Assembly (NCBI GenBank): GCA_026400755.1
Contig: JAPLOM010000011.1
Location: 14,815-78,814, forward strand
Direction of reading: 5' to 3'
Length of the DNA: 64,000 bases
DNA from: Alphaproteobacteria bacterium
GTDB taxonomy: Bacteria > Pseudomonadota > Alphaproteobacteria > CADEGL01
Part shown: piece after piece, positions 1 through 17,292 of the stretch
How the letters are laid out: each line of letters starts with the position of its first letter
Position numbering within the stretch: position 1 is the first letter of the stretch
Made by a program: the position numbers and the translations under genes
The notes under the pieces: model-generated
The model's input: only the letters and a program-made list of their open reading frames with translations
Databases searched by the model: none
Told to the model about the DNA's origin: nothing

Positions 1-702
1 CGTGTCGAGGCCGGGGTCCAGGCCGATATGCTCGCTGATGTTCTGAAGCTGATGGAACGGCTTGGCCGCGATCATGGGCAGAAGCCACAGCGTCACCGCC
101 AGCCACGAATCGAAGGCGACCGACAGCGCAGCGATGATCGCATAGCCGACCCAATGCCAGCGCACCTCGACGACCACATAGCGGCGCTGAGAGGCAGTCA
201 ACCAATACGCCCAGGACGGGATCGCGCCCCGCGCGATGTCGAACAACATCTTCACGCGGAAGATCCAGTAGCCGAGACCGGAAAGATAAAGGAGGAAATT
301 GCCGAGCGTGTATTTCAGCCGCATCAAAAGCTCGGCGTCCTTTTCCCAATTCCCAGTGTTGCGGTGATGGGCGAAATGGACCCAGCGTTCCCACATGCAG
401 GGATAAAGAAGAATGAATCCCGTGCAATGGGTCATGACGTTGTTGACCCGGCGCGTCTTGAACGCGGTCAGGTGGTTGCCTTCATGTTGGGCCGCGAACA
501 GCGTGTTGATGAGATAGCCGTGCAGCAGGAACAGCGGCACCGCCCACCAAGTGCCCCAGGTCGCCCACAGCGCCCAGCCCGTGGCGCCGAGCGCGCCCAC
601 ATGGCTCGCGAGTTGAAGCGCGCCGCGCAGATCCGAACGGCGTGACAATTCCTTCAACTGGCGCGGATTGATGATGTCCGTGCGCGAAACCCAACCGTCC
701 AT
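1..702 (-). CDS. Membrane fatty-acid desaturase-family (MocD-like) di-iron oxygenase, 3' end beyond window edge
   Basis: Manual translation from ATG 702: MDGWVSRTDIINPRQLKELSRRSDLRGALQLASHVGALG...QHECNHLTAFKTR...HFAHHRNT...QNISEH. His boxes and TM segments; SD-like AAGGGA upstream. The + strand ORF 28..645 is its shadow. Confidence 0.85.
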   Translation of the reverse strand, partial: MDGWVSRTDIINPRQLKELSRRSDLRGALQLASHVGALGATGWALWATWGTWWAVPLFLLHGYLINTLFAAQHEGNHLTAFKTRRVNNVMTHCTGFILLYPCMWERWVHFAHHRNTGNWEKDAELLMRLKYTLGNFLLYLSGLGYWIFRVKMLFDIARGAIPSWAYWLTASQRRYVVVEVRWHWVGYAIIAALSVAFDSWLAVTLWLLPMIAAKPFHQLQNISEHIGLDPGLDT

Positions 703-814
703 GACCGTCCCTTCATGCACGAGGTCCGGCCGCGGCCGGTCAGGGGATTCTGACCTTGGGGAAACTCCTGGAAATATGGACGTTTCGACCCATAAGTTCT
801 AACCTGACCAAACC

Positions 815-1789
815 ATGGCAGTGGAAGGTCGCGCATTCCGAGGGGCACTGGGCGATGCCGATCTTAGGCTGCTGCGCGTCTTTCGCGCGGTGGTCGAGGC
901 CGGCGGCCTGTCTGCGGCCGAATCGGTCCTGAACGTCGGCCGTTCGACCATCAGCACCCATATCGCGGATTTGGAGCGGCGGCTGCATATGCGGCTGTGC
1001 CGGCGCGGCCGGGGCGGCTTTGCCCTCACCGAGCACGGCCAAGTGGTCTATGACGCGACCCTCAAACTTCTGGTGTCCCTGGAGGATTTCCGCGCCGAGG
1101 TGAATGGCGCGCATGCCCAACTGGCGGGCGAGCTGAATTTGGCGTTCGTCGAGCACAGCACGCGCCATCCCGGCTTTCGCCTGGATGCCGCCTTGCGCGC
1201 CTTCAGCGAGCGCGCACCCAGCGTCCACGTGAACCTAGAGGCCCGCGGCATCGCCGAGATCGAGCAAGCCGTCCTGCACGGCCGTCTTCATGTCGGCATC
1301 GTCATTGCCAACCGGCGGCTGGCGGGCCTCAACTATCGCTATCTTCTGTCCGAAATTCAGGCGCCGTTTTGCGCCAAAGGCCATCCGCTGTTCAGCCGGC
1401 CGGATGCCTCGATCACCTTGGACGAGATCGCCAGCCAGGACTATGTCAGCCGGTCCTATATCGACGAATCCAAGGCGCGACAGGGTTATTTGCGGGGCGC
1501 GCCGGCCGCGACCGCGCACAATCTGGAGGCCGTGGTCACCCTGATTCTGAGCGGGCGCTATATCGGCATCATGCCAACGGATTTTCCCGAGGAATGGGTG
1601 CGCCAAGGCGCGATCCGCGCGATTCGGCCGGACCTGACATCCTACCCCCGCGATTTCGAGGTGGTGACGCGCAAGGGCACACCCCCGACGCCGGTGGTCG
1701 CCGCGTTTCTCGACGAATTGTTCAAATCGCACCAGGTCGCGAAACCAGCCGCGCCACGTGCGCCCGCGCCGGCACGGCGCAGGCGCTGA
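815..1789 (+). CDS. LysR-family transcriptional regulator
   Basis: N-terminal HTH (LRLLRVFRAVVEAGGLSAAESVLNVGRSTISTHIADLE...LTEHG) plus substrate-binding domain; divergent from the desaturase. Confidence 0.93.
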   Translation: MAVEGRAFRGALGDADLRLLRVFRAVVEAGGLSAAESVLNVGRSTISTHIADLERRLHMRLCRRGRGGFALTEHGQVVYDATLKLLVSLEDFRAEVNGAHAQLAGELNLAFVEHSTRHPGFRLDAALRAFSERAPSVHVNLEARGIAEIEQAVLHGRLHVGIVIANRRLAGLNYRYLLSEIQAPFCAKGHPLFSRPDASITLDEIASQDYVSRSYIDESKARQGYLRGAPAATAHNLEAVVTLILSGRYIGIMPTDFPEEWVRQGAIRAIRPDLTSYPRDFEVVTRKGTPPTPVVAAFLDELFKSHQVAKPAAPRAPAPARRRR

Positions 1790-1792
1790 GCG

Positions 1793-1999
1793 TCAGGGCG
1801 TGCAGCCCGGCGGATTGTCGTTGGGGTTGCCGTTGGGCGGCGGGCACGGCGTCACACCCATCATTCCCGCCTGGGCTTCGCGCTCGAGGCGGAGGACGAT
1901 CGGAGCGGCATAGGTCACGCCAACCGCCAGCCCCAGCTTGGCCAGGGCCTTACGGCGGCTGATCTCGACCTGAGCATCCGGCGCGGCGTGTTTCTTCAT
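1793..1999 (-). CDS. Small 68-aa peptide with twin-arginine-like leader and Cys-bracketed Pro/Asn-rich core
   Basis: SRRKALAKLG motif, hydrophobic stretch with YAAP, AQA cleavage site; SD GGAG upstream; sigma54 promoter upstream; fills the gap between lysR and mmcB. Confidence 0.8.
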   Translation of the reverse strand: MKKHAAPDAQVEISRRKALAKLGLAVGVTYAAPIVLRLEREAQAGMMGVTPCPPPNGNPNDNPPGCTP

Positions 2000-2025
2000 G
2001 AGCCCATTCTCCCATACCAGTACCT

Positions 2026-2041
2026 AGCAAACCATATGCCA
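2026..2041 (-). promoter_or_regulatory. sigma54 (-24/-12) promoter of the small peptide gene
   Basis: Minus strand TGGCAT-ATGGT-TTGCT versus consensus TGGCAC-N5-TTGCW; predicted +1 near 2015, just before the SD. Confidence 0.75.
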
Positions 2042-2087
2042 TGGCGCGTCTGGACCGCATTCATTCCGGTGATAAGATCGCTCATCC

Positions 2088-2558
2088 ATGAGCCAAGCCA
2101 TCGTCATCGCCGCCGGGCTTCCCAGCGCGGATACCGAAACCCGTCTGGCCATAGCACTTGCCCGTGGCATCAGCCGCGCCCTGGCCGACCAAGGCTACGG
2201 CACGTTAGTGGAATTCTCCCTCAACAACGGACGACGTGCCGACGTGATCGGCCTGGACGGCGCCGGCCGCTTTATCATCATCGAGATCAAGACCAGCGAC
2301 GCCGATTTTCGCGCCGACCGGAAATGGCCGGAGTATCGCGAGCATTGCGACCTGTTCTATTTCGCGGTTCCGGTGGGCTTTCCGCAGACCATCCTGCCGC
2401 CCGACTGCGGCCTGATGGTGGCCGACGCCTACGCGGCCGCGGTGATCCGCGAGTCCGAGGAAATCCCCATGAACGGCAGCCGGCGCCGCGCCCAGGTGTT
2501 GCGCTTCGGCCTGGTCGCCAGCGAACGGCTGCAGCGGCTGGCCGATCCGCGCCTTTAG
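2088..2558 (+). CDS. mmcB: MmcB family DNA repair protein (PD-(D/E)XK nuclease-like)
   Basis: GRRADV...IIEIKTSDADFRADRKWPEYREHCDLFYFAVP motifs. Confidence 0.88.
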   Translation: MSQAIVIAAGLPSADTETRLAIALARGISRALADQGYGTLVEFSLNNGRRADVIGLDGAGRFIIIEIKTSDADFRADRKWPEYREHCDLFYFAVPVGFPQTILPPDCGLMVADAYAAAVIRESEEIPMNGSRRRAQVLRFGLVASERLQRLADPRL

Positions 2559-2559
2559 G

Positions 2560-4026
2560 CTATTTCGTCAGCTTGGCGATGGTGCCGGTCGTGCTATGGC
2601 CAGGCAGAAGCTCGGCCAGGATGACGCGTCCGCCATGACGCTGGACCACCTCGGCGCCCACCACCGTCTCGATCGTGTAGTCCGACCCTTTCACCAACAC
2701 GTCGGGGCGGATTTGCTCGATCAGGGAAAGCGGCGTGTCCTCGCCGAAGATCGTCACCAGATCGACAGCGGCCAGCGAGGCCAGGACGGCGCTGCGCGCC
2801 GATTCGTTCTGCACGGGGCGCGTCGGACCCTTTAGGCGTTTGACCGAGGCGTCGCTGTTCAACCCGACGACCAGCCGGTCGCAGGCTGCCTTGGCTTGGG
2901 ACAAGAGCGTGACGTGACCTGGGTGCAGGAGGTCGAAGACGCCGTTGGTGAAGCCGACGACGAGGCCTTCCTTGCGCCAGCGCTCGACACGCGCCAGCGC
3001 GTCGTCGTGCGCCGCGATCTTGCTTTCGTCGGCCAGGAGATCCTGGGTGTGGAGGGCGGTGAAAACTTCGTCGGCCGTGGCGACCGCGGTGCCGGTCTTA
3101 CCCACCACGATGCCGGCCGCGACATTGGCCAAGCGTGCCGCGTCGGGCAGCGTCACACCCGCGGCCAGCGCCGCGGCCAGCATGGCCACGACCGTATCGC
3201 CCGCGCCCGAAACGTCGAACACCTCGCGCGCCTCGGCGGGCAAATGCGTGACCTCGCCCCCGCGCGCGAACAGCGTCATGCCGTCGGCGCCGCGCGTCAC
3301 CAAAAGGGACTCGAGCGCGCATTCGGCGATCAGTTTTCCGGCCGCCGCGCCGATCTCCTCGTCCGTGCCAACCGGCATGCCCGTGGCGGCCGCCAGTTCG
3401 GCGCGGTTGGGCGTCAGCACGGTGGCGCCACGGTAACGCGAGAAATCCTTGCCCTTGGGATCGACGACGACGGGCCGCTTCTGCGTCCGGCCGGCGTCGA
3501 TCAAGGCGCGCATCAGCTCGGGCGTCAGCACGCCCTTGCCATAGTCCGACAGCACAATCACGGACGCGTCGGCGACCGCGCCCACGGCCACGCGGCGCAG
3601 ATCCTCGGCGACCGAGGGCGCCAGCGGAGCGAGCGTTTCCCTGTCCGTACGCAGAAGCTGCTGGCCGCCCGCGACGTAACGGGTCTTGACCGTGGTCATC
3701 CGCCCGCGCTCGACCGACAGATATGGCTCGTGCTTGTCATGCGCCGCGACCAGGGCGCTGATCTCGCGGCCGGCCTGATCGTTGCCGACGACGGAGGCGA
3801 AGGCGACGTGGGCGCCCAGAGCCGAGAGATTGCGCACGACATTGCCCGCGCCGCCCAGCATGGCGGCCTCGCGCTCCATGCGCAGGACGGGAATCGGCGC
3901 CTCGGGCGAGATGCGTTCGACCGCGCCATAGACATACCGGTCCAGCATGACGTCGCCGACGCACAGCACATGGGCGTCCTTGAGCCGCTCGATGGCAGCG
4001 GCCAGATCCGAGCGCGTCGCCGTCAT
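2560..4026 (-). CDS. hldE: Bifunctional heptose-7-phosphate kinase / heptose-1-phosphate adenylyltransferase
   Basis: VGDVMLDRY...RISPEAP, DVSGAGDTV, GFTNGVFDLLHPGH; start MTATRSD overlaps the gmhA stop (ATGA). Confidence 0.95.
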   Translation of the reverse strand: MTATRSDLAAAIERLKDAHVLCVGDVMLDRYVYGAVERISPEAPIPVLRMEREAAMLGGAGNVVRNLSALGAHVAFASVVGNDQAGREISALVAAHDKHEPYLSVERGRMTTVKTRYVAGGQQLLRTDRETLAPLAPSVAEDLRRVAVGAVADASVIVLSDYGKGVLTPELMRALIDAGRTQKRPVVVDPKGKDFSRYRGATVLTPNRAELAAATGMPVGTDEEIGAAAGKLIAECALESLLVTRGADGMTLFARGGEVTHLPAEAREVFDVSGAGDTVVAMLAAALAAGVTLPDAARLANVAAGIVVGKTGTAVATADEVFTALHTQDLLADESKIAAHDDALARVERWRKEGLVVGFTNGVFDLLHPGHVTLLSQAKAACDRLVVGLNSDASVKRLKGPTRPVQNESARSAVLASLAAVDLVTIFGEDTPLSLIEQIRPDVLVKGSDYTIETVVGAEVVQRHGGRVILAELLPGHSTTGTIAKLTK

Positions 4027-4607
4027 GGCTGAACCAGACCCAGCTCGAGTTCCAGCGCGCCGCACAGCATCTGGCCGATGGTGATGTGCATTTCCTGGAT
4101 GCGCGCGGTGGTCTTGGACGGGACGATCAGCAAGGGATCGGCCAGGCCCGGCAGGGCGCCGCCGTCGCCGCCGGACAACGCCGCCGGCACGATGCCCATC
4201 TCGCGCGCGGCCTCCAGCGCCTTGAGCACATTGGCGCTGCGCCCGGAGGTGCTGATACCAATGGCCACATCCCCCTTGCGCCCGAGAGCGCGCACCTGGC
4301 GCGCGAACAACTGGTCGAAGCCCAGATCGTTGCCAATCGCGGTCAGGGCCGAGCTATCCGTCGTCAGCGCAATGGCCGCGATGGGCGCCCGGTCGCGCTT
4401 GTAACGGACGGTCAGCTCGGTCGCCAAATGCTGGGCGTCGGCGGCGCTGCCGCCGTTGCCGAAGAAGAGAAGCTTGTTGCCCGCACGAATGGCTTCGGCC
4501 GAAAGGTGCAAGAGCCGCGCGAACGGCTCGGCCAGCGCGGACCGGGCGGCTTCCGCCACCTTCATATGCTCCGCCCACTCGCTGTCATAAAACCGGCCGA
4601 GATCCAT
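4023..4607 (-). CDS. gmhA: D-sedoheptulose-7-phosphate isomerase
   Basis: GNGGSAADAQH, ISTSGRS, TARIQEMH motifs; start ATG 4607 (alternative 4619). Confidence 0.95.
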   Translation of the reverse strand: MDLGRFYDSEWAEHMKVAEAARSALAEPFARLLHLSAEAIRAGNKLLFFGNGGSAADAQHLATELTVRYKRDRAPIAAIALTTDSSALTAIGNDLGFDQLFARQVRALGRKGDVAIGISTSGRSANVLKALEAAREMGIVPAALSGGDGGALPGLADPLLIVPSKTTARIQEMHITIGQMLCGALELELGLVQP

Positions 4608-4683
4608 GCCTGCCCCCATGGCCGAGGGTATATCGGATTCCGGCCCCGGCCAGAAGCGCACCTTGCAAGCGGGACGCCAGGAA

Positions 4684-5880
4684 CTAGGCCCGGGAGGCCG
4701 CCAGGACGCGTTCGAATTCGTCGCCGATACGCCCCATGCCGAAGCGGCTTGCAGCATAGGCCGCGGCGTTGGCGCCGAGGCGCACCCGCTCGGCCTCGTC
4801 GGCCAAAAGCCGGTCGGCGGCGGCCAGAAAGCCCCGTTCGTCGTCAGGCGCCACGACCACGCCCAGTCCATTGTCGCGCACCATACGGGCGGCCAGGTTC
4901 TCGGCCGGCATGGCGCCCAGCACCGGCCGGCCGGCGCACAGATAACTGAGCACCTTGGACGGCACGGAGAAAACGCCCGCGTCCGCGCCCAGGACCGCCA
5001 ACATCACATCGCCCGTACCCAGCACGTCCGGCATTTCGCCGTAAGGTTGGAAGGGAAGCACGTGCAACGAATCGAGCCCTTCGTCACGCTTGTACGCCGC
5101 CAGGACGTCGGCGCCACGCCCTTCGGAGACCACCACCACGGCCGCGTCCGTGCGCCCCTTCAGATGGCGCGCCAGCGCGACCAGCAGGCCGGGGTCGTGC
5201 TTCAACCCCATGCTGCCGGTGTAGAGAAAGACGCGGCGGTCGATGAGCCGGTGCTTCTCCGCCCATGGGTTGCGGCGCGGGCGGGGGACAATCTCACCGA
5301 GCGGCCCCCAATTCTCGATGACATGCAGCCTTTCCGCAGGAACGCCCCAGCCGCGCAGGATCGGCGTGAAATCGTCGGTGATCAGGACCAGCGCATCGGC
5401 CTCGCGCGCGAAGCGCTTTTCCATCGCGATGTGGTAACGGCCGACGATCTCGCCTGCGATGGGCAAGCGCGCGCGCAGGATTTTATGGGAAGCGATGCCG
5501 AGCAGATCCTGCACCCAGAAAACAAAGCGCGCCCCGACGGCCTTGAGCGCGGGGCGGGCGGGCGCCAGCACGTCGAGAGGAGTGTTGCCGATAATGGCGA
5601 CCTCAGGCCGCCATTCGCGGATCACGTCAGCCAGCACCGCGCCATAGGCACGCTCGTCGCGCCAGCGCTGGCCGAAACTGTTGCGCCGATAGTCCTGGCC
5701 GGCCGCCAGCGGCCGAATCTCGAGACCCGCCGGATCGTCAGCCTGGTGCGCCAGGGCACCCTTGGGGGTCTTGTTGACCGAGGAATAGAGGTGGAGGACG
5801 GCATGGCCGCGCCGCGCCAGTTCGCGGCTCAACTGGACCGCGAAGGGGTGGCCTGCGAAATCATGCACCAGGATGCGCAA
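4684..5880 (-). CDS. Glycosyltransferase family 4 (WcaI-like)
   Basis: TTG start LRILVHDFAGHPF with GAGG SD; WVQD, YTGSMGLKH, VPSKVLSYLCAGRPV motifs. The 680-aa track ORF is over-extended into the opposite-strand GT2. Confidence 0.88.
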   Translation of the reverse strand: MRILVHDFAGHPFAVQLSRELARRGHAVLHLYSSVNKTPKGALAHQADDPAGLEIRPLAAGQDYRRNSFGQRWRDERAYGAVLADVIREWRPEVAIIGNTPLDVLAPARPALKAVGARFVFWVQDLLGIASHKILRARLPIAGEIVGRYHIAMEKRFAREADALVLITDDFTPILRGWGVPAERLHVIENWGPLGEIVPRPRRNPWAEKHRLIDRRVFLYTGSMGLKHDPGLLVALARHLKGRTDAAVVVVSEGRGADVLAAYKRDEGLDSLHVLPFQPYGEMPDVLGTGDVMLAVLGADAGVFSVPSKVLSYLCAGRPVLGAMPAENLAARMVRDNGLGVVVAPDDERGFLAAADRLLADEAERVRLGANAAAYAASRFGMGRIGDEFERVLAASRA

Positions 5881-6033
5881 CAGGGTCAGCCTCGACGATG
5901 AATGCCGGAAAGATAGCCGTTCCACAGGCGTCCGGGCGAGCCCGGCTTGCCCTCCGCGCGCGGCTGCCGATAAGGTCGGCCCGCCTGGCGCGGGACCTGC
6001 ATAGGATAGACTTCCATTCCGTCTGGAAACGCG

Positions 6034-6801
6034 ATGCACGCCCATATCACCCCAGCCGTTTTGACCTTCAACGAGGCGTCCAATATCGGGCGCATGCTCG
6101 AACGCCTGGCCTGGGCCAAGGATGTTGTGGTCGTCGACAGCGGGTCCAGCGACGAAACCGTGGCCATCGCCAAGCGGTTCCCGAATGTGCGCGTCTTCGT
6201 CCGGCCTTTCGACACCCATTGGAACCAATGGACCTTCGCGCAGAAGGAAACCGGCATCCGCACGGAATGGATGATGCGACTCGACGCCGACTACATCCTG
6301 TCGGAACCGTTGATCGACGAGCTGGGCGCTCTGCGACCCACGGACGATGTTTCCGCCTACAACACCCGCTTCGTTTATTGCATCCATGGGCGGCCGCTGC
6401 GCGCGTCGCTCTATCCGCCGCGCCCGCGCCTGTTCCGTGTCGCGCGCGGACGCTTCTACGAGGACGGGCATGCCGATGAAACGGCGATCGAGGGACGAAT
6501 TCTCGACCTGGTTCATCCGATCTTCCACGACGACCGCAAGCCCATGCTTTATTGGATCGGTTCGCAGGCGCGCTACATGGCGCTCGAGTCCGAGAAGATC
6601 GCGCAATCGAATGCACTGTCGCTGCCGGATCGGCTGCGACGCGACACCGTGCTGATGCCATTCGTCGCCTTCGTCTACCTCTTGTTCGTGCGCGGCCTCA
6701 TCCTCGATGGGCGAGCAGGGCTGCATTACTGCCTGCAGCGGACGCTGGCCGACTTCATGTTGAAGCTTTATCTCGTCGACCGCCGCATGCGGGACCGATG
6801 A
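6034..6801 (+). CDS. Glycosyltransferase family 2 (beta-1,4-glucosyltransferase-like)
   Basis: LTFNEASNI, VVDSGSSDET, LDADY (DxD) and LILDGRAG motifs. Confidence 0.92.
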   Translation: MHAHITPAVLTFNEASNIGRMLERLAWAKDVVVVDSGSSDETVAIAKRFPNVRVFVRPFDTHWNQWTFAQKETGIRTEWMMRLDADYILSEPLIDELGALRPTDDVSAYNTRFVYCIHGRPLRASLYPPRPRLFRVARGRFYEDGHADETAIEGRILDLVHPIFHDDRKPMLYWIGSQARYMALESEKIAQSNALSLPDRLRRDTVLMPFVAFVYLLFVRGLILDGRAGLHYCLQRTLADFMLKLYLVDRRMRDR

Positions 6802-8570
6802 GCAAGCCCGTTCATATCCTCGGCCTCAATGCCTATCACGCCGACGCCTCCGCCTGCCTCGTCAGCGACGGCGTCCTTGTCGCGGCGGCGGAAGAGGAGC
6901 GCTTTCGCCGCATCAAGCATTGGGCGGGGTTCCCAAGCGAAGCCATCCGCTACTGCCTAGAAGCTGGCGGCATAAGCCTCGATCAAGTCGCCCATGTCGC
7001 GATCAACCGCGATCCGCGCGCGCATCTGTGGCGGAAGGTTTCCTACAGCGTGGCCAACCGGCTGAACGCCTCGTTCCTGCGCGGCCGCTTAAAGAACGCG
7101 CGCAAATGGGCCGGCGTCGAGGACGAATTGACCGCCGCATTTCCCGATCAGCGTTTCGCGGGTGTTGCGCATAACGTGGAGCATCACCGCGCGCATCTCG
7201 TTTCGGCCTACCACCTGTCGCCGTTCGATGACGCCACCGTCGTGTCGATCGACGGGTTCGGCGACTTCTGCTCCGCGGCATGGGGGCGTGGACGGAACGG
7301 CACGCTCACGGTCGAAGGGCGCGTCTTCTATCCCCACTCGCTGGGCCAGTTCTACGAAGCCATGACCCAGCATCTGGGTTTTCCCCATTACGGCGACGAA
7401 TACAAAGTGATGGGGCTGGCGCCCTATGGCGAGCCACGCTTCATGGAGCAGATGCGCCGCATCGTGCGGCTGGAGGAAGGCGGCAGTTTCGAGCTCGATT
7501 TGCGTTTCTTCGGTTACGCCACCGGCAATTACACCTACCAATGGTCCGGCGGCTCACCCCATGTGGGCACGCTGTTCACGCCCGCCGTGGAGGCGCTTCT
7601 GGGTCCCGCCCGCAAGCCGGAGGAAAAGCTGGACCAGCGGCATTTCGACATGGCGCGCTCGACCCAAGCCATGTTCGAGGAGGCCGCTTTCCATCTCTAC
7701 AACACGCTGCACCGGCGCCATGCGGTCGACGCCATCGCCATCGCGGGGGGGTGCGGCTTCAACTCCGTGGCCAACGGGCGGCTTTATCACCGCACGCCCT
7801 ATCGGCGCTGCTACGTCCAGGCAGCAGCCGGAGATTCCGGCGGCGCGGTCGGTGCGGCCTATGACGTGTGGCACCGCCATGCAGGCGAAGGCGCACGCTG
7901 CTTCACAATGAACCATGCCTATTGGGGCCCGGAGTTCGGTGACGATGCCATCGCCGCCGCCATCGCCGCGCGGCAAAGCGAAATCGACGCCAAGGGTTGC
8001 GCGGTCGAAACGATGACGGGCGATGCCCTCTATACGCGTACCGCCGCCGCCATCGCGGCCGGCAAGGTGATCGGATGGTTCCAGGGACGTTTGGAGTGGG
8101 GGCCGCGGGCGCTCGGCAACCGCTCGATCCTGGCCGATCCGCGTCGCGCCGACATGAAGGACATCTTGAATCTCAAGATCAAACGCCGAGAGTCCTTCCG
8201 GCCCTTCGCGCCTTCGATCCTGCGCGAAGCCGTGTCCGATTGGTTCGAGACCGATGACGACGTGCCGTTCATGATGCAGGTGTTCCAGATTCGCGAGGAC
8301 AAGCGGTCGCGCATCCCCGCCGTGACCCATGTGGACGGCTCTGGCCGGCTGCAGACCGTCACGCGCGAGACGAACGAACGCTATTACAGACTCATCCAGG
8401 CCTTCGCCGACGAGACCGGCGTGCCCATGCTGCTGAACACCTCGTTCAACGAGAACGAACCCATGGTGTGCAAGCCGGAGGAAGCGCTCGACTGTTTCCT
8501 GCGCACCAACATGGACGTTCTAGTGATGGGCGATTACCTGATCGAGCGCCGCGCCGCGACATCCGCGTAG
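6798..8570 (+). CDS. NodU/CmcH-family O-carbamoyltransferase
   Basis: ILGLNAYHADASA, EEERFRRIKH, VEHHRAH, EYKVMGLAPYG, EWGPRALGNRSILADP, LLNTSFN; ATGA overlap with the GT2 gene. Confidence 0.93.
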   Translation: MSKPVHILGLNAYHADASACLVSDGVLVAAAEEERFRRIKHWAGFPSEAIRYCLEAGGISLDQVAHVAINRDPRAHLWRKVSYSVANRLNASFLRGRLKNARKWAGVEDELTAAFPDQRFAGVAHNVEHHRAHLVSAYHLSPFDDATVVSIDGFGDFCSAAWGRGRNGTLTVEGRVFYPHSLGQFYEAMTQHLGFPHYGDEYKVMGLAPYGEPRFMEQMRRIVRLEEGGSFELDLRFFGYATGNYTYQWSGGSPHVGTLFTPAVEALLGPARKPEEKLDQRHFDMARSTQAMFEEAAFHLYNTLHRRHAVDAIAIAGGCGFNSVANGRLYHRTPYRRCYVQAAAGDSGGAVGAAYDVWHRHAGEGARCFTMNHAYWGPEFGDDAIAAAIAARQSEIDAKGCAVETMTGDALYTRTAAAIAAGKVIGWFQGRLEWGPRALGNRSILADPRRADMKDILNLKIKRRESFRPFAPSILREAVSDWFETDDDVPFMMQVFQIREDKRSRIPAVTHVDGSGRLQTVTRETNERYYRLIQAFADETGVPMLLNTSFNENEPMVCKPEEALDCFLRTNMDVLVMGDYLIERRAATSA

Positions 8571-9172
8571 AGCGTCTCCAGCTCGATGGCGATCCGCGGC
8601 CAGGTGAACTTCTCCCGCGCGAGTTTGCGGCCGGCCTCGCCCATGCGCCGCGCCGCCGTCGGATCGCCCAGCAGCTGCTCCAAAAGCCCCGTAAACGCGT
8701 TCGTATCGCAAGGGCTGACCAGGCCAGCGCCGCCCAGTTCCACCTCACGCCAAAGATTGACCTGATCGGAAATGGCGACGGGCACTCCAGCCGCCATGGC
8801 CTCTAGAACCGCGATGCCGAAATTCTCGCTGTAGGACGGCAAGACGAAGACCGACGCGGCGGTCAGAGCGGCGCCTTTGTCTTCGCCTTCGAGCATGCCG
8901 GTGCGCGTGGCCTTGTGCGCGACACCGGCCTTCCGCAGCCATTCGTCCACCTGGGCGCCCATTCCGTCATCAGGCCCGGCCAGCACCAGGTGGGTGTCGG
9001 GAAATCTCTGGGCGATGCGCCCAAACGACGACGCCAAGATGTCGAGGCCCTTCTTCTCATGCAGGCGGCTCAGGAACAGGACGATGCGCTTGGCGCGCGT
9101 CTCCGGATGCCGCGCGAAGAATCGATCAGGCGACGGCAGCGAAGCGGGCCACGATCGGCCGCGCGAAACCAC
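8534..9172 (-). pseudogene. Truncated glycosyltransferase family 4 (C-terminal nucleotide-sugar-binding domain only)
   Basis: FLSRLHEKKGLD, PSYSENFGIAVLEAMAAGVPV and FTWPRIA are present; the N-terminal acceptor domain is absent, only ~130 bp separate it from the divergent ABC gene, and there is no clear SD. Confidence 0.7.
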
Positions 9173-9300
9173 GGAACTCGATCACGGCCGGCGCATTGTC
9201 GGGAGATACCGTTCTCGTCATCGTGCACGAGTGTGCCACAGCGGCAGCGGCCGCGCCTACGTCCTGGCCCGTCGCAGCGATTTCACGCATAGTCCGGCCC

Positions 9301-10050
9301 ATGCTCGAACCCGCCATCCGCGTCACGCGCCTGACCAAGCGCTATAAGACGGTCTTGGCCGTCGCCGCGCTCGATTTCGAAGTCACGCGCGGCTCGGTGA
9401 CCGCGCTTTTGGGCGGCAACGGCGCGGGCAAGACCACGACCCTGTCCATGATCATGGGCCTCGTGCTGCCGACGTCCGGCGCGATCGAGGTGCTGGGCCA
9501 GGACATGGTCCATCACCGGTATCGCGTGCTGCCGCGTATGAATTTCTCCTCGCCCTATGTGGAACTGCCGCGCAGCCTGACGGTGCAGGAGAACCTGGCG
9601 GTCTTCGCCCGGCTTTATGGCATTCCCGACCGCACGAAAGCCTGCGCACGCCTGGCCGAGGAACTGGATCTGACCGCTTTCCTCAAGCGCGCCACGGGCA
9701 CTCTGTCCGCCGGCGAGAAGACGCGCGTGATGTTGGCCAAGTCTCTCCTCAACCAGCCCGAGCTTCTGCTGCTGGACGAGCCGACAGCGTCGCTGGACCC
9801 GGATTCCGCCGATTGGATCCGCACCTATCTGCAGGACTATCAGCGCCGGTATGGCGCGACCGTGCTCATGGCCTCCCACAACATGCTCGAGGTCGAGCGG
9901 ATGTGCGACGACGTGATGGTCATGCGCGAAGGCAAGATCGAACATCGCGGCACGCCCGCTGAATTGATCCGGCAATTCGGGCGCGACACGCTGGAAGAGG
10001 TCTATCTGGACATCCACCGCCGCGAAGGCGGCGCGAGGGCCGCACAATGA
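9301..10050 (+). CDS. ABC-2 exporter ATP-binding subunit (NodI/DrrA-like)
   Basis: Walker A GGNGAGKTT, LSAGE signature, LLLLDEPT Walker B, SH switch. Confidence 0.93.
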   Translation: MLEPAIRVTRLTKRYKTVLAVAALDFEVTRGSVTALLGGNGAGKTTTLSMIMGLVLPTSGAIEVLGQDMVHHRYRVLPRMNFSSPYVELPRSLTVQENLAVFARLYGIPDRTKACARLAEELDLTAFLKRATGTLSAGEKTRVMLAKSLLNQPELLLLDEPTASLDPDSADWIRTYLQDYQRRYGATVLMASHNMLEVERMCDDVMVMREGKIEHRGTPAELIRQFGRDTLEEVYLDIHRREGGARAAQ

Positions 10051-10883
10051 GTGCGTTCCGGGACAAGGTGTCGCGCGCGGGCGCGCACGGGTTTTCGCCC
10101 ACGCGCATCAGCGCCATGGTCATGCGCCACGTCTATCTATTGCGGCGGTCATGGCCGCGCCTTTTGGAGCTGGCGTACTGGCCCATCGTCCAGGTGTTGC
10201 TGTGGGGTTTTATCAGCAAGTTCTTCGCCACCAACAGCACCTGGGTCGCGCAAGCCGCCGGTGTGCTCTTAGCCGGCGTGTTGTTGTGGGACGTGCTGTT
10301 TCGCAGCCAGTTGGGCGTCACGATCTCCCTTCTGGAAGAGCTGTGGTCGCGCAACCTGGGCCACCTCTTCATCAGCCCGCTGCGGCCTTACGAGTTGTGC
10401 ATTTCGCTCACCACCATGAGCTTGATCCGCACGCTGATCGGCATTCTCCCAGCAGCGTTGATCGCCATTCCGCTTTACGAATACTCCATCTTCGACATGG
10501 GACTGCCGCTGCTGGCGTTTTTCTCGACGCTCCTGGTCTTTGGCTGGGCGCTGGGTCTGGCCATCGCGGCCGTTCTGATCCGCTTGGGCATGGCGGCAGA
10601 GAACCTGGCGTGGCTCCTGGTGTTCGTGCTGGCGCCGATTTCGGGCATCTATTACCCCATCGACGTCTTGCCCGGCTGGGTTCAAGTGATCGCTTGGATG
10701 TTCCCGGCACCCTATGTGTTCGAAGGCATGCGCGAGGTGCTGTTCCACGGCGTCTTCCGCGTCGATCTGATGCTGGCCGCGCTGGCGCTGGATCTCGTCT
10801 ATCTCCTCTTGGGCGCGGGCGCTTTCCTTTACAGCTTCCGCGTCGCGCGGGTGCAGGGATTGCTCCTGCGTACGGGCGAATGA
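10047..10883 (+). CDS. ABC-2 type transporter permease
   Basis: About six hydrophobic segments, SGIYYPIDVLPGWVQ ABC-2 signature; ATGA overlap with the ATPase. Confidence 0.92.
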   Translation: MSAFRDKVSRAGAHGFSPTRISAMVMRHVYLLRRSWPRLLELAYWPIVQVLLWGFISKFFATNSTWVAQAAGVLLAGVLLWDVLFRSQLGVTISLLEELWSRNLGHLFISPLRPYELCISLTTMSLIRTLIGILPAALIAIPLYEYSIFDMGLPLLAFFSTLLVFGWALGLAIAAVLIRLGMAAENLAWLLVFVLAPISGIYYPIDVLPGWVQVIAWMFPAPYVFEGMREVLFHGVFRVDLMLAALALDLVYLLLGAGAFLYSFRVARVQGLLLRTGE

Positions 10884-10887
10884 TCGC

Positions 10888-11916
10888 CTAGACGTCGCGG
10901 CCGCTGACGCGCGCTTCCTCGAATGTCGCCATGCCGGTGTGGCAGGCCACCGCCGCGCGCAGAATGCCGACCGCGAGGGCCGCGCCCGACGCCTCGCCCA
11001 GCCGCATGCCGAGATCGAGCACCGGCCGCTTGCCAAGCCGCTCTAGAAGCCGCGCATGGCCGGGTTCGGCCGAACGATGCGCGACGATGCAATGATCAAG
11101 CGCGCCCGGCCGCGCCTCGTGGATGATCGCGGCGGCGGCGGTCGAGGCATAGCCATCGAGCACGACGGGCACATGCGCCAGCCGCGCGGCCAGCACGGCG
11201 CCCGCGATGGCGGCCAATTCGTGCCCGCCGACGCAGCGCAGAATCTCGAACGGATCGGTCATCATCGCGCGGTTGCGCGCCACGCCCGCCGTCACGGTCT
11301 CGACCTTGCGCGCGAGCGCAGCGCCCTCGGCCCCCGTGCCCGGCCCGACCCAATCGGTCGCGGTACCGCCGTAGAGCGCATGACACAGGGCCGCGGCGGA
11401 GGTCGTGTTGGCGATGCCCATTTCGCCGAGGCAGAGAAGGTCGACGCCCGGCTCCACCGCCATCATTCCGTAGGCCGCGGCGCGCGCGCATTCCTCGCCC
11501 GACAGCGCTGGTTCTTCGGTGAAGTCGCGCGTCGGGTGATCGAGCGCCATCTCGTAGACGCGCAGGTCGGCATCGACCGCCTTGCAAAGCTGGTTGATGG
11601 CGGCGCCGCCTGCGATGAAGTTCTGCACCATCTGAGCAGTCACGGCGGGCGGATAGGCGCTGACCCCGCGCGCGGCGACGCCATGGTTGCCCGCGAAGAC
11701 GGCCACGCGCGGCCGGTCGATGCGCGGCGGATGGCGCCCCTGCCAACGCGCGAGCCAAGCCGACAACTCCTCCAGCCGCCCGAGCGCGCCGGCGGGTTTG
11801 GTCAACAGCTTCTCGCGCGCGGCGGCGGCCTCCGCGGCGGCTTCGTCGCCGTCCGGCAACGATGCGATCAGGGCGCGCAGCTCGTCGAGCGACGCGGGTG
11901 GAGACGGTTGGGTCAT
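10888..11916 (-). CDS. cobT: Nicotinate-nucleotide--dimethylbenzimidazole phosphoribosyltransferase
   Basis: LTKPAGALGRLE, FAGNHGV, GEMGIANTTSAAA, LGMRLGEASGA motifs; start MTQPS. Confidence 0.95.
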   Translation of the reverse strand: MTQPSPPASLDELRALIASLPDGDEAAAEAAAAREKLLTKPAGALGRLEELSAWLARWQGRHPPRIDRPRVAVFAGNHGVAARGVSAYPPAVTAQMVQNFIAGGAAINQLCKAVDADLRVYEMALDHPTRDFTEEPALSGEECARAAAYGMMAVEPGVDLLCLGEMGIANTTSAAALCHALYGGTATDWVGPGTGAEGAALARKVETVTAGVARNRAMMTDPFEILRCVGGHELAAIAGAVLAARLAHVPVVLDGYASTAAAAIIHEARPGALDHCIVAHRSAEPGHARLLERLGKRPVLDLGMRLGEASGAALAVGILRAAVACHTGMATFEEARVSGRDV

Positions 11917-11918
11917 GG

Positions 11919-12083
11919 TCAGTCCAAAATTTCGGCGAAGGCGCGGATGGGGAACGAGGTCGCGTCGCGCACCCGCGGGGGCACGGCGAAGAAACAGAAT
12001 TGCCACACACGCACGGCATAGCGCGGATTGATGCCACCCATGCCCTCGAAAATCTCCCGGCTCAATTCAACGAAGCGCGTCAT
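11919..12083 (-). pseudogene. 54-aa in-frame remnant of a cyclase/kynurenine formamidase-family gene (N- and C-termini fused)
   Basis: Manual translation MTRFVELSREIFEGMGGINPRYAVRVWQFCFFAVPPRVRDATSFPIRAFAEILD*; SD AGGGA; stop 2 nt before the cobT ATG; both ends resemble cyclase-family termini. Confidence 0.6.
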
Positions 12084-12151
12084 GGCAATCCCTGTTCGCG
12101 GACCCGTACCTGTCCTATAACCACGATCATGCTTGGCGCTAGAGGAATCCC

Positions 12152-12967
12152 GTGACGACGGTCGAGGAACCAGGGCCCCCGCGCAACCGCCTGGACGTGG
12201 GCGGCTGGCTGGCCGACCTCACGGTGGCGGCGGCGTTCCTGACGCGATTGCGGCCGCCGGGCGCTTTGGCCCCAGCGGACCTGGCGCCCGGCCGCCTGGC
12301 TGGGACGGTACGCGCTTTCCCGCTGGTCGGGGCGGGCGTGGGTCTGGCGGGCGGAATCGTGTACGCCCTGGCCTATTGGCTTGGTTTACCCCCCCTCGCC
12401 GCGGCGTTGTGTGCGCTGACGGTGACCGCCTTGGCGACCGGCGCCTTGCACGAAGACGGGTTGGCCGACACGGCCGACGGACTCGGCGGTGGCAAGACGG
12501 TGGAAGATCGTCTGCGCATCATGCGCGACAGCCATATCGGCGCCTTCGGCGTCCTGGCGTTGATCTTCAGCGTCGGCCTGCGCGCGGCGGCGCTGGCCAC
12601 CCTCGGCACGCCATGGCTGGCTGCGGCCGCCCTGATCGCGAGCGGCGCTGGCTCCCGTGCCTTGCTCGGCCTGCTCATGCGGCGGCTTGATCCGGCGCGG
12701 CCTGACGGGCTGGCTGCCGGCGCCGGCCGGCCTTCCGAGGAAGGCGCCCTGACCGCAGCCGCGATCGGCGCAGCGTTCGCCGTTCTCTTTCTCGGTCTTG
12801 GCGCTGGGATTGTGGCGGCCGCCGCTGCGGCGGTCGCAGCGGCGGCCGTCGGCCAATACGCACGGCGTGGCATCGGCGGCTATACCGGCGACGTGTTGGG
12901 GGCGACCCAGCAGGTCGCCGAGATCGCCATCCTGCTGGTCGCCGCGGCGAAGCTCGGATCGGCATGA
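12152..12967 (+). CDS. cobS: Adenosylcobinamide-GDP ribazoletransferase (cobalamin synthase)
   Basis: FLTRL, TGALHEDGLADTADG, IMRDSHIGAFG, GGYTGDVLGA; GTG start with GAGG SD. Confidence 0.95.
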   Translation: MTTVEEPGPPRNRLDVGGWLADLTVAAAFLTRLRPPGALAPADLAPGRLAGTVRAFPLVGAGVGLAGGIVYALAYWLGLPPLAAALCALTVTALATGALHEDGLADTADGLGGGKTVEDRLRIMRDSHIGAFGVLALIFSVGLRAAALATLGTPWLAAAALIASGAGSRALLGLLMRRLDPARPDGLAAGAGRPSEEGALTAAAIGAAFAVLFLGLGAGIVAAAAAAVAAAAVGQYARRGIGGYTGDVLGATQQVAEIAILLVAAAKLGSA

Positions 12968-13614
12968 GCAAGGTCACCCGCTGGTGGTGGATCCGGCACG
13001 CGCCCGTGCCGGACGGCGGCTGCATCTATGGCCAGCGTGATCTTTCAGCCGACTGTACCGACAGCGCGGCCTTCGCCTACCGCGCCGCGTCCCTGCCGGC
13101 GGGCGCCGTGTGGGTTGCGAGCCATCTGCGCCGCACCCATGAGACCGCGGCGGCCATTTGCGCCGCGGGTTACGGTGAGGCGCAACCGGCAGTCGAACGC
13201 GATCTGGCCGAGCAGCATTTCGGCGAATGGCAGGGACTGCCGCGCAAGGAAGTCTTCGCCAGCCAATCGCGCTGGCCGAACTTTTGGCTGGCGCCGGCCG
13301 ACCAGGCGCCGCCGGGCGGCGAAAGCTTCGCCCAAGTGGTCGCGCGCGTGGCGCCCGCGATCGAACGGCTGACCACATCACACGCGGGCCGCAACATCGT
13401 GGCCGTCGCCCACGGCGGCACGATTCGCGCGGCACTGGCGCTGGCGCTCGGCCTGACGCCATCGGCGGCGTTGGCCTTCTCCGTCGACACAATCTCGCTG
13501 ACGCGCCTCGACCATATCGCCGGGCCGGACGGCGCGGCGTGGCGCGTGGTCGCCGTCAACCAAGCGGCCAGTGCCCTTCCCGCCGGCCGCGACATCCCCA
13601 TCACCTTCGCGTGA
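12964..13614 (+). CDS. Histidine phosphatase family protein (CobC-like alpha-ribazole phosphatase)
   Basis: IRHAP, EQHFGEWQG, PPGGES, VAHGGTIR motifs; position in the cob operon. Confidence 0.88.
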   Translation: MSKVTRWWWIRHAPVPDGGCIYGQRDLSADCTDSAAFAYRAASLPAGAVWVASHLRRTHETAAAICAAGYGEAQPAVERDLAEQHFGEWQGLPRKEVFASQSRWPNFWLAPADQAPPGGESFAQVVARVAPAIERLTTSHAGRNIVAVAHGGTIRAALALALGLTPSAALAFSVDTISLTRLDHIAGPDGAAWRVVAVNQAASALPAGRDIPITFA

Positions 13615-14135
13615 CGGCGCCGCTCGCTCGCGTAACCCTGGTCCTCGGCGGCGCGCGGTCGGGCAAAAGCCGTTACGCCGAAACGTTGTTGCGCGAGGCA
13701 GGTGGCGGCATCTACCTGGCCACCGCCCAGGCGCTGGACAGCGAGATGACAGCGCGCATCGCGCGCCACCGGGCCGAACGGGGCCATGGATGGACAACGG
13801 TGGAAGAGCCGTTGGAATTGGCCGCCGCGCTCGAACGCGGCGCGCAGGCGGGACGCCCGATTCTGGTCGACTGCCTGACCTTGTGGCTGTCCAACCTGAT
13901 GGGCGCCGGGCGCGCGACGGAAGCGGAAACCGCGCGGCTGCGGGCGGTTTTAAAGATTCTGCCGGTCCCCGTGGTGTTCGTCTCCAATGAGGTTGGCCTG
14001 GGCATCGTGCCCGACAACGCACTGGCGCGCGCTTTCCGCGACGAAGCCGGACGGTTGAACCAAGCCATAGCCGCCGCCGCGGATCGCGTGGTGTTCCTGG
14101 CCGCGGGCCTTCCCTTGGTTCTCAAGGGCGGCTGA
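13611..14135 (+). CDS. cobU: Bifunctional adenosylcobinamide kinase / cobinamide-phosphate guanylyltransferase
   Basis: GTG start overlapping the upstream stop; GGARSGKSRYAE, VDCLTLWLSN, VSNEVGLGIVP. Confidence 0.95.
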   Translation: MTAPLARVTLVLGGARSGKSRYAETLLREAGGGIYLATAQALDSEMTARIARHRAERGHGWTTVEEPLELAAALERGAQAGRPILVDCLTLWLSNLMGAGRATEAETARLRAVLKILPVPVVFVSNEVGLGIVPDNALARAFRDEAGRLNQAIAAAADRVVFLAAGLPLVLKGG

Positions 14136-14701
14136 TGCCCGCGTTCGATCCGGCAAGCCTCGTTCACGCCTTGGGCATCGACGCGCAAGCAGGCCGCCGG
14201 ATCGGCTTGATTTTGGTCGAAGACGAAAACATGGGCGGCGCGGCCACGGCCGTCCTCCGCACGCTCTCGGCACTCGCGGCCTCGGGCTGCCGGGTCGAAG
14301 AATTGCCCGCGGACGGGCGGGCGCTTCTGCGCCGTCTTTGGCGCGGCATGGAGGAGACGTCTCCGGACCGTGAAACGTTGCCCTTGCCCGACTATGTGCG
14401 TTGGCTGACCACGCTTCCCGCCGGCTATGAGCAAGAGCTTGCCACCGGATGGAAGCGTCCGGAGGACGACCCCTTGTTCCGCGCCGGAACGCTGGATTGC
14501 GGTCATTTCCTCATTCCCGCCGCGCGGTTCGGCGATGCCGCCATCGTCGCCTGGAGCATGCGCGCCAAGCCTTCCACCGCCTCGACGCCGCCCCACGGCC
14601 ATCTGGCCGCGGTCGCATGGTTGCGCGACATCTTCGGCGCCCAAGCCGTCCTGACCATCGATGGAAAGGGCGCTGTCACCGTCGCGCCGCCACCATTTTG
14701 A
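14135..14701 (+). CDS. Stand-alone fragment of cobaltochelatase CobN (mini-CobN, 188 aa)
   Basis: LPADGRALL, LPLPDY..W...LP, PEDDPLF...DCGHFLIPAARFG and PPHGHLAAVAWLRDIFGAQAV resemble an internal CobN region; TGATG overlap with cobU. Confidence 0.72.
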   Translation: MPAFDPASLVHALGIDAQAGRRIGLILVEDENMGGAATAVLRTLSALAASGCRVEELPADGRALLRRLWRGMEETSPDRETLPLPDYVRWLTTLPAGYEQELATGWKRPEDDPLFRAGTLDCGHFLIPAARFGDAAIVAWSMRAKPSTASTPPHGHLAAVAWLRDIFGAQAVLTIDGKGAVTVAPPPF

Positions 14702-14885
14702 TGCCGCATTCCCAACCTAGACCCCCACACGATCCCTGGTCCCCGAGGAATCCCAAACGCGTTATGATGGCCCGCCTGCCTGCGACGGAGCGAAATTTGG
14801 AAATAAATCCAGGGGTTTCCGCGTCGTCATCACGGGCGGAGGCGCCGATGCGGCGGCGCCGGACCCTGCAAGGAGAAGAAGAAAC

Positions 14886-15578
14886 ATGAGAATACCCCTC
14901 CGGACCGTCTTCGGATTTGCCCTCGTCCTCACCATCGCCACCAGTTCAGCAGCGCGCGCGGAAACCAACCAGGAAGAGCTGGTCAGCAAGGCGCGCCTGA
15001 CCATTGAGCGCCTGTCGGCCAATCCGGATTTCGGACGCATGAACGCCGCCGTCAAAACCTCGCAGGCGGTGATGATCTTCCCCTCTGTGCTGAAGGGCAG
15101 CTTCATCATCGGCGCCGAGGGCGGCAACGGCGTGCTTCTGACCAAGGACGCCAACGGCGAATGGAGCTATCCCGCCTTCTACACGCTGGGCGCGGGCAGC
15201 ATCGGGCTGCAAGCCGGGTTCCAGGATTCCGAGGTTGTCCTCGTCATCAACACGCTGAAGGGCTTGAACGCGATCCTGAACAACAATTTCAAGTTCGGTG
15301 TTGATGCCAGCGTAGCGCTCGGTCCGGTCGGCCAAGGCATCGAAGGCTCGACGACGACCGCGTTCGGCGCAGACATCGAGGCATATTCCGCAACCCGCGG
15401 CCTGTTCGCGGGCGGCTCCCTTGAGGGGGCCGTGACATACGAACGCTCGGATTGGAACCGGAACTATTACGAGGTCGGCGCCTCGGCACGCGGCGTCGTG
15501 ATGGAACGCGCGTTCCGCAATCCGCAGGCCGACGGCCTGCGCGAGGCCTTGGCGAAGATCAGCAGCGCCGCGCCCTAG
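14886..15578 (+). CDS. Exported lipid-binding SYLF (Ysc84) domain protein
   Basis: Signal peptide (ARA), KGSFIIGAEGGNGV, GSIGLQAG, GLFAGGSLEG, NRNYY; strong AAGGAG SD. Confidence 0.9.
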   Translation: MRIPLRTVFGFALVLTIATSSAARAETNQEELVSKARLTIERLSANPDFGRMNAAVKTSQAVMIFPSVLKGSFIIGAEGGNGVLLTKDANGEWSYPAFYTLGAGSIGLQAGFQDSEVVLVINTLKGLNAILNNNFKFGVDASVALGPVGQGIEGSTTTAFGADIEAYSATRGLFAGGSLEGAVTYERSDWNRNYYEVGASARGVVMERAFRNPQADGLREALAKISSAAP

Positions 15579-15584
15579 ACGCCT

Positions 15585-16571
15585 TCAATCGAATCCCAGC
15601 CAAGCAAGCGCGACCGCAAGCACGAAGAGCGCGCAAGCCCCGACATAGAGCCGCAACGCGCGTGCGACATCGCGCGCTTCCAAATTGGGCGCGCCGTCGC
15701 CGAGCCAGGGATCATCGATGGTTTGGGTGCCGTAGCGGCGTGGCCCCGCGAGAGCGAGCCCAAGCGCGCCGGCCGCCGCGGCCTCGGGCCAGCCCGCGTT
15801 GACCGAACGGTGTTTGCCCGCGTCGCGCCAAGCGACGGCGAGGGCGCGGGACGGCCGCGCGCCTGGCACGAAGACGGCCGCGGCCGCGAGGAGAATGGCG
15901 GAGAGGCGCGCCGGAACGAAGTTCAGCACGTCGTCGAGACGCGCCGAGGCGCGTCCAAAATACAAATGACGCGGCGAGCGATGGCCCAACATGCTGTCCA
16001 GCGTGTTAGCCGCCTTATAGGCGAACAGTCCAGGCAAGCCGAAGACCGCATAGAAGAGCGCCGGCGCGATCACGCCGTCGGAGAAGTTCTCGACCAGAGA
16101 CTCCACGGCCGCGCGCGCCACACCGTGCCGATCGAGGCTGCGCGGATCGCGACCGACGATATGGGAGACAGTGTGGCGCGCGCCCTCCAGATCACCGCGC
16201 GCCAACGGGCGCTCGACGCGGCGCACATGGGCAAACAGGCTGCGTTGCGCCAGCAGCGCCACGACCGCGGCCAATTCGACGACCCAGCCGAACGGAACGG
16301 AATTCGCCAGCACGTGCAGCGCAAGGCCGGACAAAGCGGCGCCCGCGACGACAATGAACGCCGCCACGGCGCCCCACACGAGATTTTGCGCTGGCCCACG
16401 CGTGGGCCAGTTCAGCATGCGGTCGAGATGCGCGATGACAGCGCCGAAAAGGCGGACGGGATGGCCGGGCCAGGAAAAGGGCCAGCGCCGCTCCGGCAAG
16501 GCGCCATCCAGAAAAAGCGCGGCGACGAGGACGGCCAGCGCGTCCGGGTGCGAAGCGCATTCGAAAATCAT
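15585..16571 (-). CDS. cbiB: Adenosylcobinamide-phosphate synthase CbiB/CobD
   Basis: HPVRLFG, IVGRD, ESLVENFSDGVIAP, NTLDSMLGH, RLDDVLNFVPARL, NAGWPEAA; start at 16571 is inferred. Confidence 0.93.
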   Translation of the reverse strand: MIFECASHPDALAVLVAALFLDGALPERRWPFSWPGHPVRLFGAVIAHLDRMLNWPTRGPAQNLVWGAVAAFIVVAGAALSGLALHVLANSVPFGWVVELAAVVALLAQRSLFAHVRRVERPLARGDLEGARHTVSHIVGRDPRSLDRHGVARAAVESLVENFSDGVIAPALFYAVFGLPGLFAYKAANTLDSMLGHRSPRHLYFGRASARLDDVLNFVPARLSAILLAAAAVFVPGARPSRALAVAWRDAGKHRSVNAGWPEAAAAGALGLALAGPRRYGTQTIDDPWLGDGAPNLEARDVARALRLYVGACALFVLAVALAWLGFD

Positions 16572-16623
16572 GGCCCGAAAAAGGAAAGCGCGGTCCGGCG
16601 CATCAATGCCGGCCGCATCGAGA

Positions 16624-17205: not shown

Positions 17206-17292
17206 GGAAGGTTTGTCAGGCGGAGCAGCGGTCAAGTCAAGGTTTTGCGGCGTCACAACCCCGTCAAGTGCGCGTGTGAATCCGGCGGTTGG

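Follow-up and report, generated by a model that had tools for sequence, protein, structure and literature searches.

A 68-codon gene in the genome of a lake alphaproteobacterium (G000) is probably a real precursor gene, the proteobacterial counterpart of those of the pathway for linear polyphosphorylated peptides (LPPs), orphaned in this species by a deletion. The gene lies in a stretch of 64,000 nucleotides that we analyzed as a whole and refer to as the window. What the deletion took, namely a kinase, an RRE and neighboring genes, could be read from two related genomes in which these genes are still present.

The peptide gene and its family

The features of the window around the peptide gene are as follows.

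1793..1999 (stop codon included), minus strand: peptide gene of 68 codons, from the ORF listing and 16 close homologues
1868..1999, minus strand: leader, residues 1-44, with RR at 1952-1957, an h-region, YAAP at 1901-1912 and AQA at 1868-1876
1796..1867, minus strand: predicted core, residues 45-68, with Thr50-Pro51-Cys52 and Cys66
2007..2013, minus strand: Shine-Dalgarno-like GGGAGAA, read from the sequence, 7 nt before the ATG and kept in both congeners
2026..2041, minus strand: -24/-12 sigma54-type element TGGCATATGGTTTGCT, the lone match in the window, starting 42 nt before the ATG
2088..2558, plus strand: mmcB, divergent neighbor (PF06319, 152 bits), in conserved synteny

The initial annotation had described a 68-residue ORF with a Shine-Dalgarno site, a leader of the form RR...YAAP...AQA and a 24-residue tail bracketed by cysteines. 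The translation of 1793..1999 on the minus strand was identical to that reading, and all of these elements could be placed in it: the twin arginine at residues 15-16, YAAP at residues 30-33 (in the context Y30-A-A-P33-I-V), AQA at residues 42-44, and the tail GMMGVTPCPPPNGNPNDNPPGCTP with Cys52 and Cys66. The peptide would be cleaved after AQA. A Pfam scan of the peptide gave no match and an NCBIfam scan only a weak match to the Tat model TIGR01409; Rfam and tRNA scans of the 64-kb window were both empty.

A LysR-type gene (815-1789) is convergent to the peptide gene, and the two stop codons, within 1787-1795, are 3 nt apart. Neither a sigma70-like promoter nor an intrinsic terminator was found in the interval 1400-2300. 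Given the spacing of the stop codons and the missing terminator, transcripts of the peptide gene would run antisense into lysR. On the other side, mmcB is followed by an ORF (2560-4065) that we take to be hldE from the first reading and from its length.

The first homologue search with the window peptide yielded 16 matches of 62-69 aa. Most of them have the ending TPCPPPNGNCxDNPPxCxC, with four cysteines, and the window copy has proline in place of cysteine at two of these four positions; the two-cysteine form of the tail is also found in P0001, P0003, L013 and L014. Among 17 close relatives, T50, P51 and C52 are invariant and C66 is nearly so. A profile built from the close homologues matched eight of the 12 genomes of the organism's family, which are at the same time all sampled genomes of its order, and 31 of the 401 sampled genomes of its class. 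Several of the peptide-bearing genomes of the class contain two to four tandem copies of the gene. One such locus, in G318 (L054 / L020, C15:808402-809261), carries three to four tandem precursors with Arg-rich tails, one of them with an in-frame TAG.

The alignment of 39 members shows R15, R16, L19, L22, Y30 and P33 (window numbering) to be invariant. When the profile was searched against 1.84 billion cluster representatives, there were 792 matches at E<=1e-3, of which 174 also passed E<=1e-10. Lengths among the top 150 run from 47 to 191 aa (median 81; seven exceed 120 aa), and 147 of these 150 share the pattern RR..L..LG..YxxP. The tails of these 147 contain at least two cysteines in 104 cases and none in 40. 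The sequence after the AxA-like site is hypervariable, most often (S/T)-P-C-x(n)-C; the commonest tail opens with x3-P-(S/T)-P-C and has its second cysteine 5-25 residues further on. Since the commonest tail has this arrangement, the Cys-bracketed loop singled out by the initial annotation is a trait of the family. The quasi-symmetry TPC...CTP remarked on together with it is not conserved, as close relatives end in C-x-C.

We also considered that the ORF might be the truncated N-terminus of an ordinary large Tat protein, the finding that would have spoken against the original reading. This candidate was rejected because the family stays small, the best 150 representatives spanning 47-191 aa, and because no homologue turned up when proteins of 120-2000 aa were searched. 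The latter result is weak evidence alone and agrees with the sizes of the representatives. Judged by these sequence comparisons, the peptide ORF is a real gene, one of a large family whose members are small proteins.

Enzymes that accompany the peptide family

We mapped about 8 kb on each side of the peptide genes of 36 relatives and clustered the neighboring ORFs. A protein of 280-420 aa recurs downstream of the peptide gene; its best-scoring curated model is TIGR04352, HprK-related kinase A, at 41-49 bits. This score is set against a 200-bit cut-off, so that the relatives' kinases form a related but separate family. The name 'HprK-related kinase A' presumably goes with the label 'HPr-rel-A system'. 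A PqqD domain was found in the 13 loci in which it was examined, either fused to the kinase or encoded next to it by an ORF of its own, about 90 aa long; the domain reaches 39 bits on PF05402 and is likewise recognized by the lasso-type PqqD models. In six loci the kinase is adjoined, mostly convergently, by an NTP_transf_5 protein (PF14907, 99 bits). A protein combining TPR and SAM-methyltransferase parts directly adjoins the peptide gene in five loci (L045, L046, L052, L053 and L057) and may be a further tailoring enzyme. The search with the leader that had been proposed initially thus led to many paralogues with variable cores and with PqqD/RRE, HprK-like kinase and NTP_transf_5 proteins as recurrent neighbors. 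The reading of the gene as a leader/core precursor was borne out by the conserved leader, the variable core and the RRE and kinase neighbors of these paralogues.

Searched with a profile built from ten kinases, 31 of 36 peptide-bearing genomes gave matches at E<=1e-26. Weaker matches over the catalytic part were obtained in G191, G260 and G361, and G006 retains only an N-terminal piece (profile positions 11-99). Within the class sample of 401 genomes, the kinase was detected at E<=1e-20 in 27 of the 31 peptide-bearing genomes versus eight of the 370 peptide-free ones. The 27 genomes with both genes are spread over 19 families; we attach no test statistic to this co-occurrence because related genomes in such counts are not independent. 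The congener G001 possesses the kinase and gave no peptide match, which is uninformative because the stretch corresponding to 1200-2900 is missing from its assembly.

These data bear on the possibility that the peptide family is unconnected with the kinase cassette, that both merely lie in a cell-envelope/polysaccharide region, and that the gene encodes an ordinary Tat-exported peptide. The distances between the two genes lend this idea some substance: kinase and peptide are 25-41 kb apart on the same contig in six genomes, more than 100 kb apart in two, and on different contigs in the remaining ones. The steadiest neighbors of the peptide gene are in fact hldE and mmcB, the latter adjoining it in at least nine loci from several families, and G000 itself keeps the peptide without the cassette. 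Yet the kinase is directly adjacent to the peptide gene in 12 genomes (less than 2 kb), tandem precursors with variable tails stand beside it, and the co-occurrence across the class is far from even. The invariant YxxP is, moreover, the motif bound by RREs (PMC13381572). Taken against this evidence, independence of peptide and kinase is highly improbable.

Between mmcB and the tandem peptide genes, L058, L064 and L067 (G391, G274 and G111) encode giant RTX-repeat proteins of 1508-1977 aa.

Deletion of the putative tailoring genes in this genome

The features at the site of the deletion are as follows; the kinase stump lies about 7 kb from the peptide gene.

8534..9172, minus strand: truncated GT4 glycosyltransferase, the C-terminal half, 212 aa (PF00534, 105 bits; the G002 orthologue has 391 aa)
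9126..9338, minus strand: stump of the HprK-like kinase, consisting of its first 66 residues, five foreign codons and a stop
9134..9146, no strand: deletion joint, from the split alignment to G002 and G003, bridged in runs X4 and X6

The initial annotation had noted that no maturation enzyme is adjacent to the peptide gene. This is correct, but the kinase stump is found further along the window. The stump (P0018) corresponds to the N-terminus of the 328-residue kinase P0017 of G002. Window positions 1-9146 align with G002 contig C50 (88%), and positions 9134-17242 align with G002 contig C34 (87%), starting inside the kinase gene; G003 is split at the joint in the same way. Both congeners keep kinase and PqqD at the position of the joint. 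Beyond it, G002 carries the rest of the kinase, a PqqD protein of 88 aa, a type I secretion HlyD/ABC pair and a FecR-domain protein, and nothing in G000 corresponds to these 8.7 kb. The same G002 contig carries a PF14907 gene another 17 kb on. The assembly of G000 is rated 100% complete (87 contigs), and genome-wide we found no PF14907, no PF05402 and no kinase match beyond a 55-residue P-loop (28.8 bits). In G005, a genome from another genus, a fused kinase-PqqD gene borders this flank, and the contig that bears it also carries the peptide gene at a distance of 25 kb. As G005 keeps the fusion at this flank, the intact arrangement is ancestral and G000 carries the deletion.

Metagenomes of freshwater and lakes from 11 studies contain the window stretch. 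Logan contigs of two runs, from two further studies, cover the joint, X4 over 8340-9313 and X6 over 8827-9500. Since it is bridged in two runs, of which at most one could be the source sample, the joint is not an artefact of one assembly. A DNA contig of run X2 ends at 9142, and a contig from the RNA library X20 has unrelated letters before 9147; these two contigs may mean that another allele of the joint exists in the population. The window also encodes an ABC ATPase and an ABC-2-type permease (9196-10883) in divergent orientation to the kinase stump, the permease being named from its ORF only. In G002 and G003 the flank with this ABC pair is retained in synteny, and G005 shares the first part of it.

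The kinase, the RRE and the neighboring genes were thus lost by deletion in this species. The suggestion that modifying enzymes for the peptide might be encoded elsewhere did not hold: stump, joint and the genome-wide searches indicate that the deletion removed them. The window precursor is therefore an orphan, and since no pathway enzyme is left in the genome, the term precursor describes its ancestry rather than its present function.

An obvious question is whether the gene is a relic, that is, a peptide that has been without a role since the loss of kinase and RRE and whose gene has not yet decayed. The deletion itself speaks for this reading, as does G006, a member of the same order. There (C17:360797-361057) the peptide is fragmentary, lacks the RR and lies in an open frame of 148 aa; the fragments of both peptide and kinase in this genome hint that the two are usually lost together. 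The window peptide also evolves faster than its neighbors. It shares 78-81% identity with its counterparts in G002 and G003 at a dN/dS of 0.18-0.24, compared with 90-95% and 0.05-0.12 for LysR, MmcB and GmhA; this pattern fits a variable core and would fit relaxed constraint as well. A dN/dS of about 0.2 is nevertheless far below 1, though most of the divergence may predate the deletion. The ORF, the Shine-Dalgarno site and the -24/-12 box are, furthermore, all intact, and the contig pieces listed for three other metagenome DNA runs have no differing letter in the gene where they cover it. The two-cysteine core is no lesion either, given that this form recurs in P0003, L013 and L014. On balance, we regard the relic as a somewhat unlikely outcome.

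Transcription, export and relation to known systems

According to the initial annotation, a -24/-12 box precedes the Shine-Dalgarno site, and an exact TGGCAT-N5-TTGCT, with the GG-N10-GC core and hexamers like those of TGGCAC-N5-TTGCW, indeed stands correctly placed at 2026-2041. The pattern TGGCAY-N5-TTGCW has one match in the 64-kb window; 0.10 are expected, and ten of 100 shuffles contained at least one. In the genome as a whole, a relaxed box occurs nine times in 3.36 Mb versus about 13 estimated for uniform base composition. Because this count is at chance level, the motif alone is not significant genome-wide and the argument for the box rests on its position and its conservation. A GG-N10-GC element is retained, with changed spacers, at six of eight loci of the order, in three genera. 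Three genomes of the genus read TGGCATATGG(T/C)TTGCT, G008 reads TGGCATGGCGATTGCT, and G004 and G005 read TGGCCTGGTAGTTGCA; in G009 (L008) the G008 version carries AG for GG, and no element precedes the degenerate peptide gene of G006 (L010). The box is absent from most peptide loci outside the order, where only L013, L021 and L028 reach nine of 11 box positions, at scattered distances. As the box is kept only within the order, the putative sigma54 control is a local acquisition and no family trait. The joint conservation of box and leader that had been anticipated consequently applies to the organism's order and does not extend across the family. Neither the kinase gene nor the kinase stump is preceded by a sigma54 box in the window, G002 or G005.

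The genome contains rpoN and only three activator genes, encoding NtrC, NtrX and a LuxO-like response regulator; with 660 bits, the last of these stays below the cut-off of the LuxO model (800). Activator genes are located on contig C21 (L082:1154-2599) and contig C1 (L083). In the one metatranscriptome run considered, X20, no contig lay over 1767-2300, a result that is neutral on expression.

Descriptions of the LPPs (LppA/K/B/S/D/N; Popov et al., Nat Commun 2026, PMC13381572) date from 2026 and are confined to Bacillota. In this system the YxxP leader is bound by the RRE LppB, Ser3 of the core is polyphosphorylated by LppK, and the leader is cut off by a SipW-type peptidase; an NTP transferase without known role also belongs to it, and the clusters are situated in capsule loci (PMC13381572). 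LPP precursors are short, with conserved YxxPx(L/V/I) leaders and hypervariable C-termini, and come in one to three copies at each locus; their leader is cut at a signal-peptidase-type site, and polysaccharide genes surround the loci. The window family resembles the LPPs in this organization, its leader ending in a predicted site of that type. Under the LPP definition of a precursor, a YxxPx(L/V/I/F/A) leader followed by a variable C-terminus, both the window peptide and its family qualify. The enzymatic counterpart, an HprK-like kinase with a discrete RRE, is reduced to the 66-residue stump in G000, its enzymes having been deleted altogether, whereas 27 of the 30 remaining genomes with the peptide in the sample possess the kinase. 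The conserved S/T-P-C after the AxA site may, by analogy, be the counterpart position to the LPP core serine. The window family differs from the LPPs in belonging to another phylum and in a leader that adds an invariant twin arginine and an h-region; the terms twin-arginine, Proteobacteria and Pseudomonadota are absent from the text of the LPP paper. Neither a SipW-type peptidase nor an MsbA-like pump recurred among the gene clusters in the 37 mapped neighborhoods.

Phosphorylated lasso peptides of the paeninodin type share a YxxP/WxxP leader, a PqqD-like B1 protein, an HprK-type kinase and an NTP transferase with the window family (PMC13381572). The mapped neighborhoods of the peptide family, in contrast, showed no lasso cyclase and no B2 peptidase, and its leader ends in AxA, whereas lasso leaders have a penultimate threonine (PMC10368454, abstract).

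By analogy with the LPPs, we propose that in the relatives the leader is recognized through its invariant YxxP (Y30-x-x-P33), which would be the docking site of a PqqD-type RRE, and that the HprK-like kinase would modify a Ser/Thr just after the leader, which would be Thr50 in the window peptide; the NTP_transf_5 enzyme may add to this modification. The leader with its RR, h-region and AxA site would then carry the peptide across the membrane by Tat and be removed by signal peptidase I. In the species studied here, transcription, if any, would start at the sigma54 promoter peculiar to the order, and the product would be an unmodified Pro/Asn-rich peptide of 24 residues with a single Cys52-Cys66 loop.

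The docking step was modeled by complex prediction. The PqqD protein of G002 with the window peptide scored 0.51, compared with 0.02 for the best of three controls, and passed a mark that 58 of 80 solved complexes and two of 110 mismatched pairs reach; at scores of 0.60 or below, only seven of those 80 solved complexes reach it, as do both mismatches. At least 91% of the contacts agreed between runs, with a partner pLDDT of at least 59. Solved RRE-leader complexes exist, so that the pass may reflect prior exposure of the predictor to such structures. The prediction gives weak support to a docking of PqqD on the leader of the window peptide.

Export by Tat is plausible from the leader sequence, and TatC is found in the genome. 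As in the signals described by TIGR01409, the leader has S-R-R-x-A-L-x-x-L-G, an h-region, a charged c-region and AxA; it differs from them in that its passenger is a 24-residue peptide and not a folded cofactor enzyme, and in scores below the cut-off. The window peptide reaches 11.7 bits against a cut-off of 16.7, and 13 of 17 relatives match at E<=10 (best E-value 0.023). These low scores could mean that the RR leader serves only as a docking site for RRE and kinase, with the peptide leaving the cell by another route or staying inside. LPPs are exported and cleaved by a dedicated ABC pump and peptidase (PMC13381572), and in G002 an ABC/HlyD pair of the type I secretion (LssB/HlyB) kind adjoins PqqD. 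Such a pair may, however, serve RTX proteins at these loci instead, and the gene clusters of the 37 mapped neighborhoods, of which a selection was scanned against Pfam or NCBIfam, included no recurrent dedicated peptidase or pump. All 39 aligned members have the RR, followed by about 18 mildly hydrophobic residues and a small-x-small site, and this combination exceeds what YxxP docking to an RRE requires. A leader restricted to docking therefore appears distinctly improbable to us.

Going one step beyond Tat export, the leader may play a dual role, in RRE docking and as a Tat signal, and thereby mark out a class of peptides in proteobacteria that are tailored by a kinase, exported by Tat and trimmed by the cell's housekeeping signal peptidase, with the unmodified disulfide-loop peptide keeping a sigma54-controlled (NtrC/LuxO-like) role in the species studied here. 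We put this forward as a speculative and, in its entirety, rather unlikely proposal.

We found no paper that joins a twin-arginine leader to an RRE precursor-peptide pathway (the supplements of the LPP paper were outside this search), and none with the term 'HprK-related kinase'. New in the present analysis are the mapped deletion that orphaned a precursor and the order-specific sigma54 box. The peptide family would extend the logic of RRE, kinase and NTP transferase to another phylum, in combination with a Tat-like leader. The window amounts to a knockout made by nature: nearly the same precursor occurs in closely related genomes whether or not they retain the tailoring genes, so that the role of the modification could be tested by comparing them.
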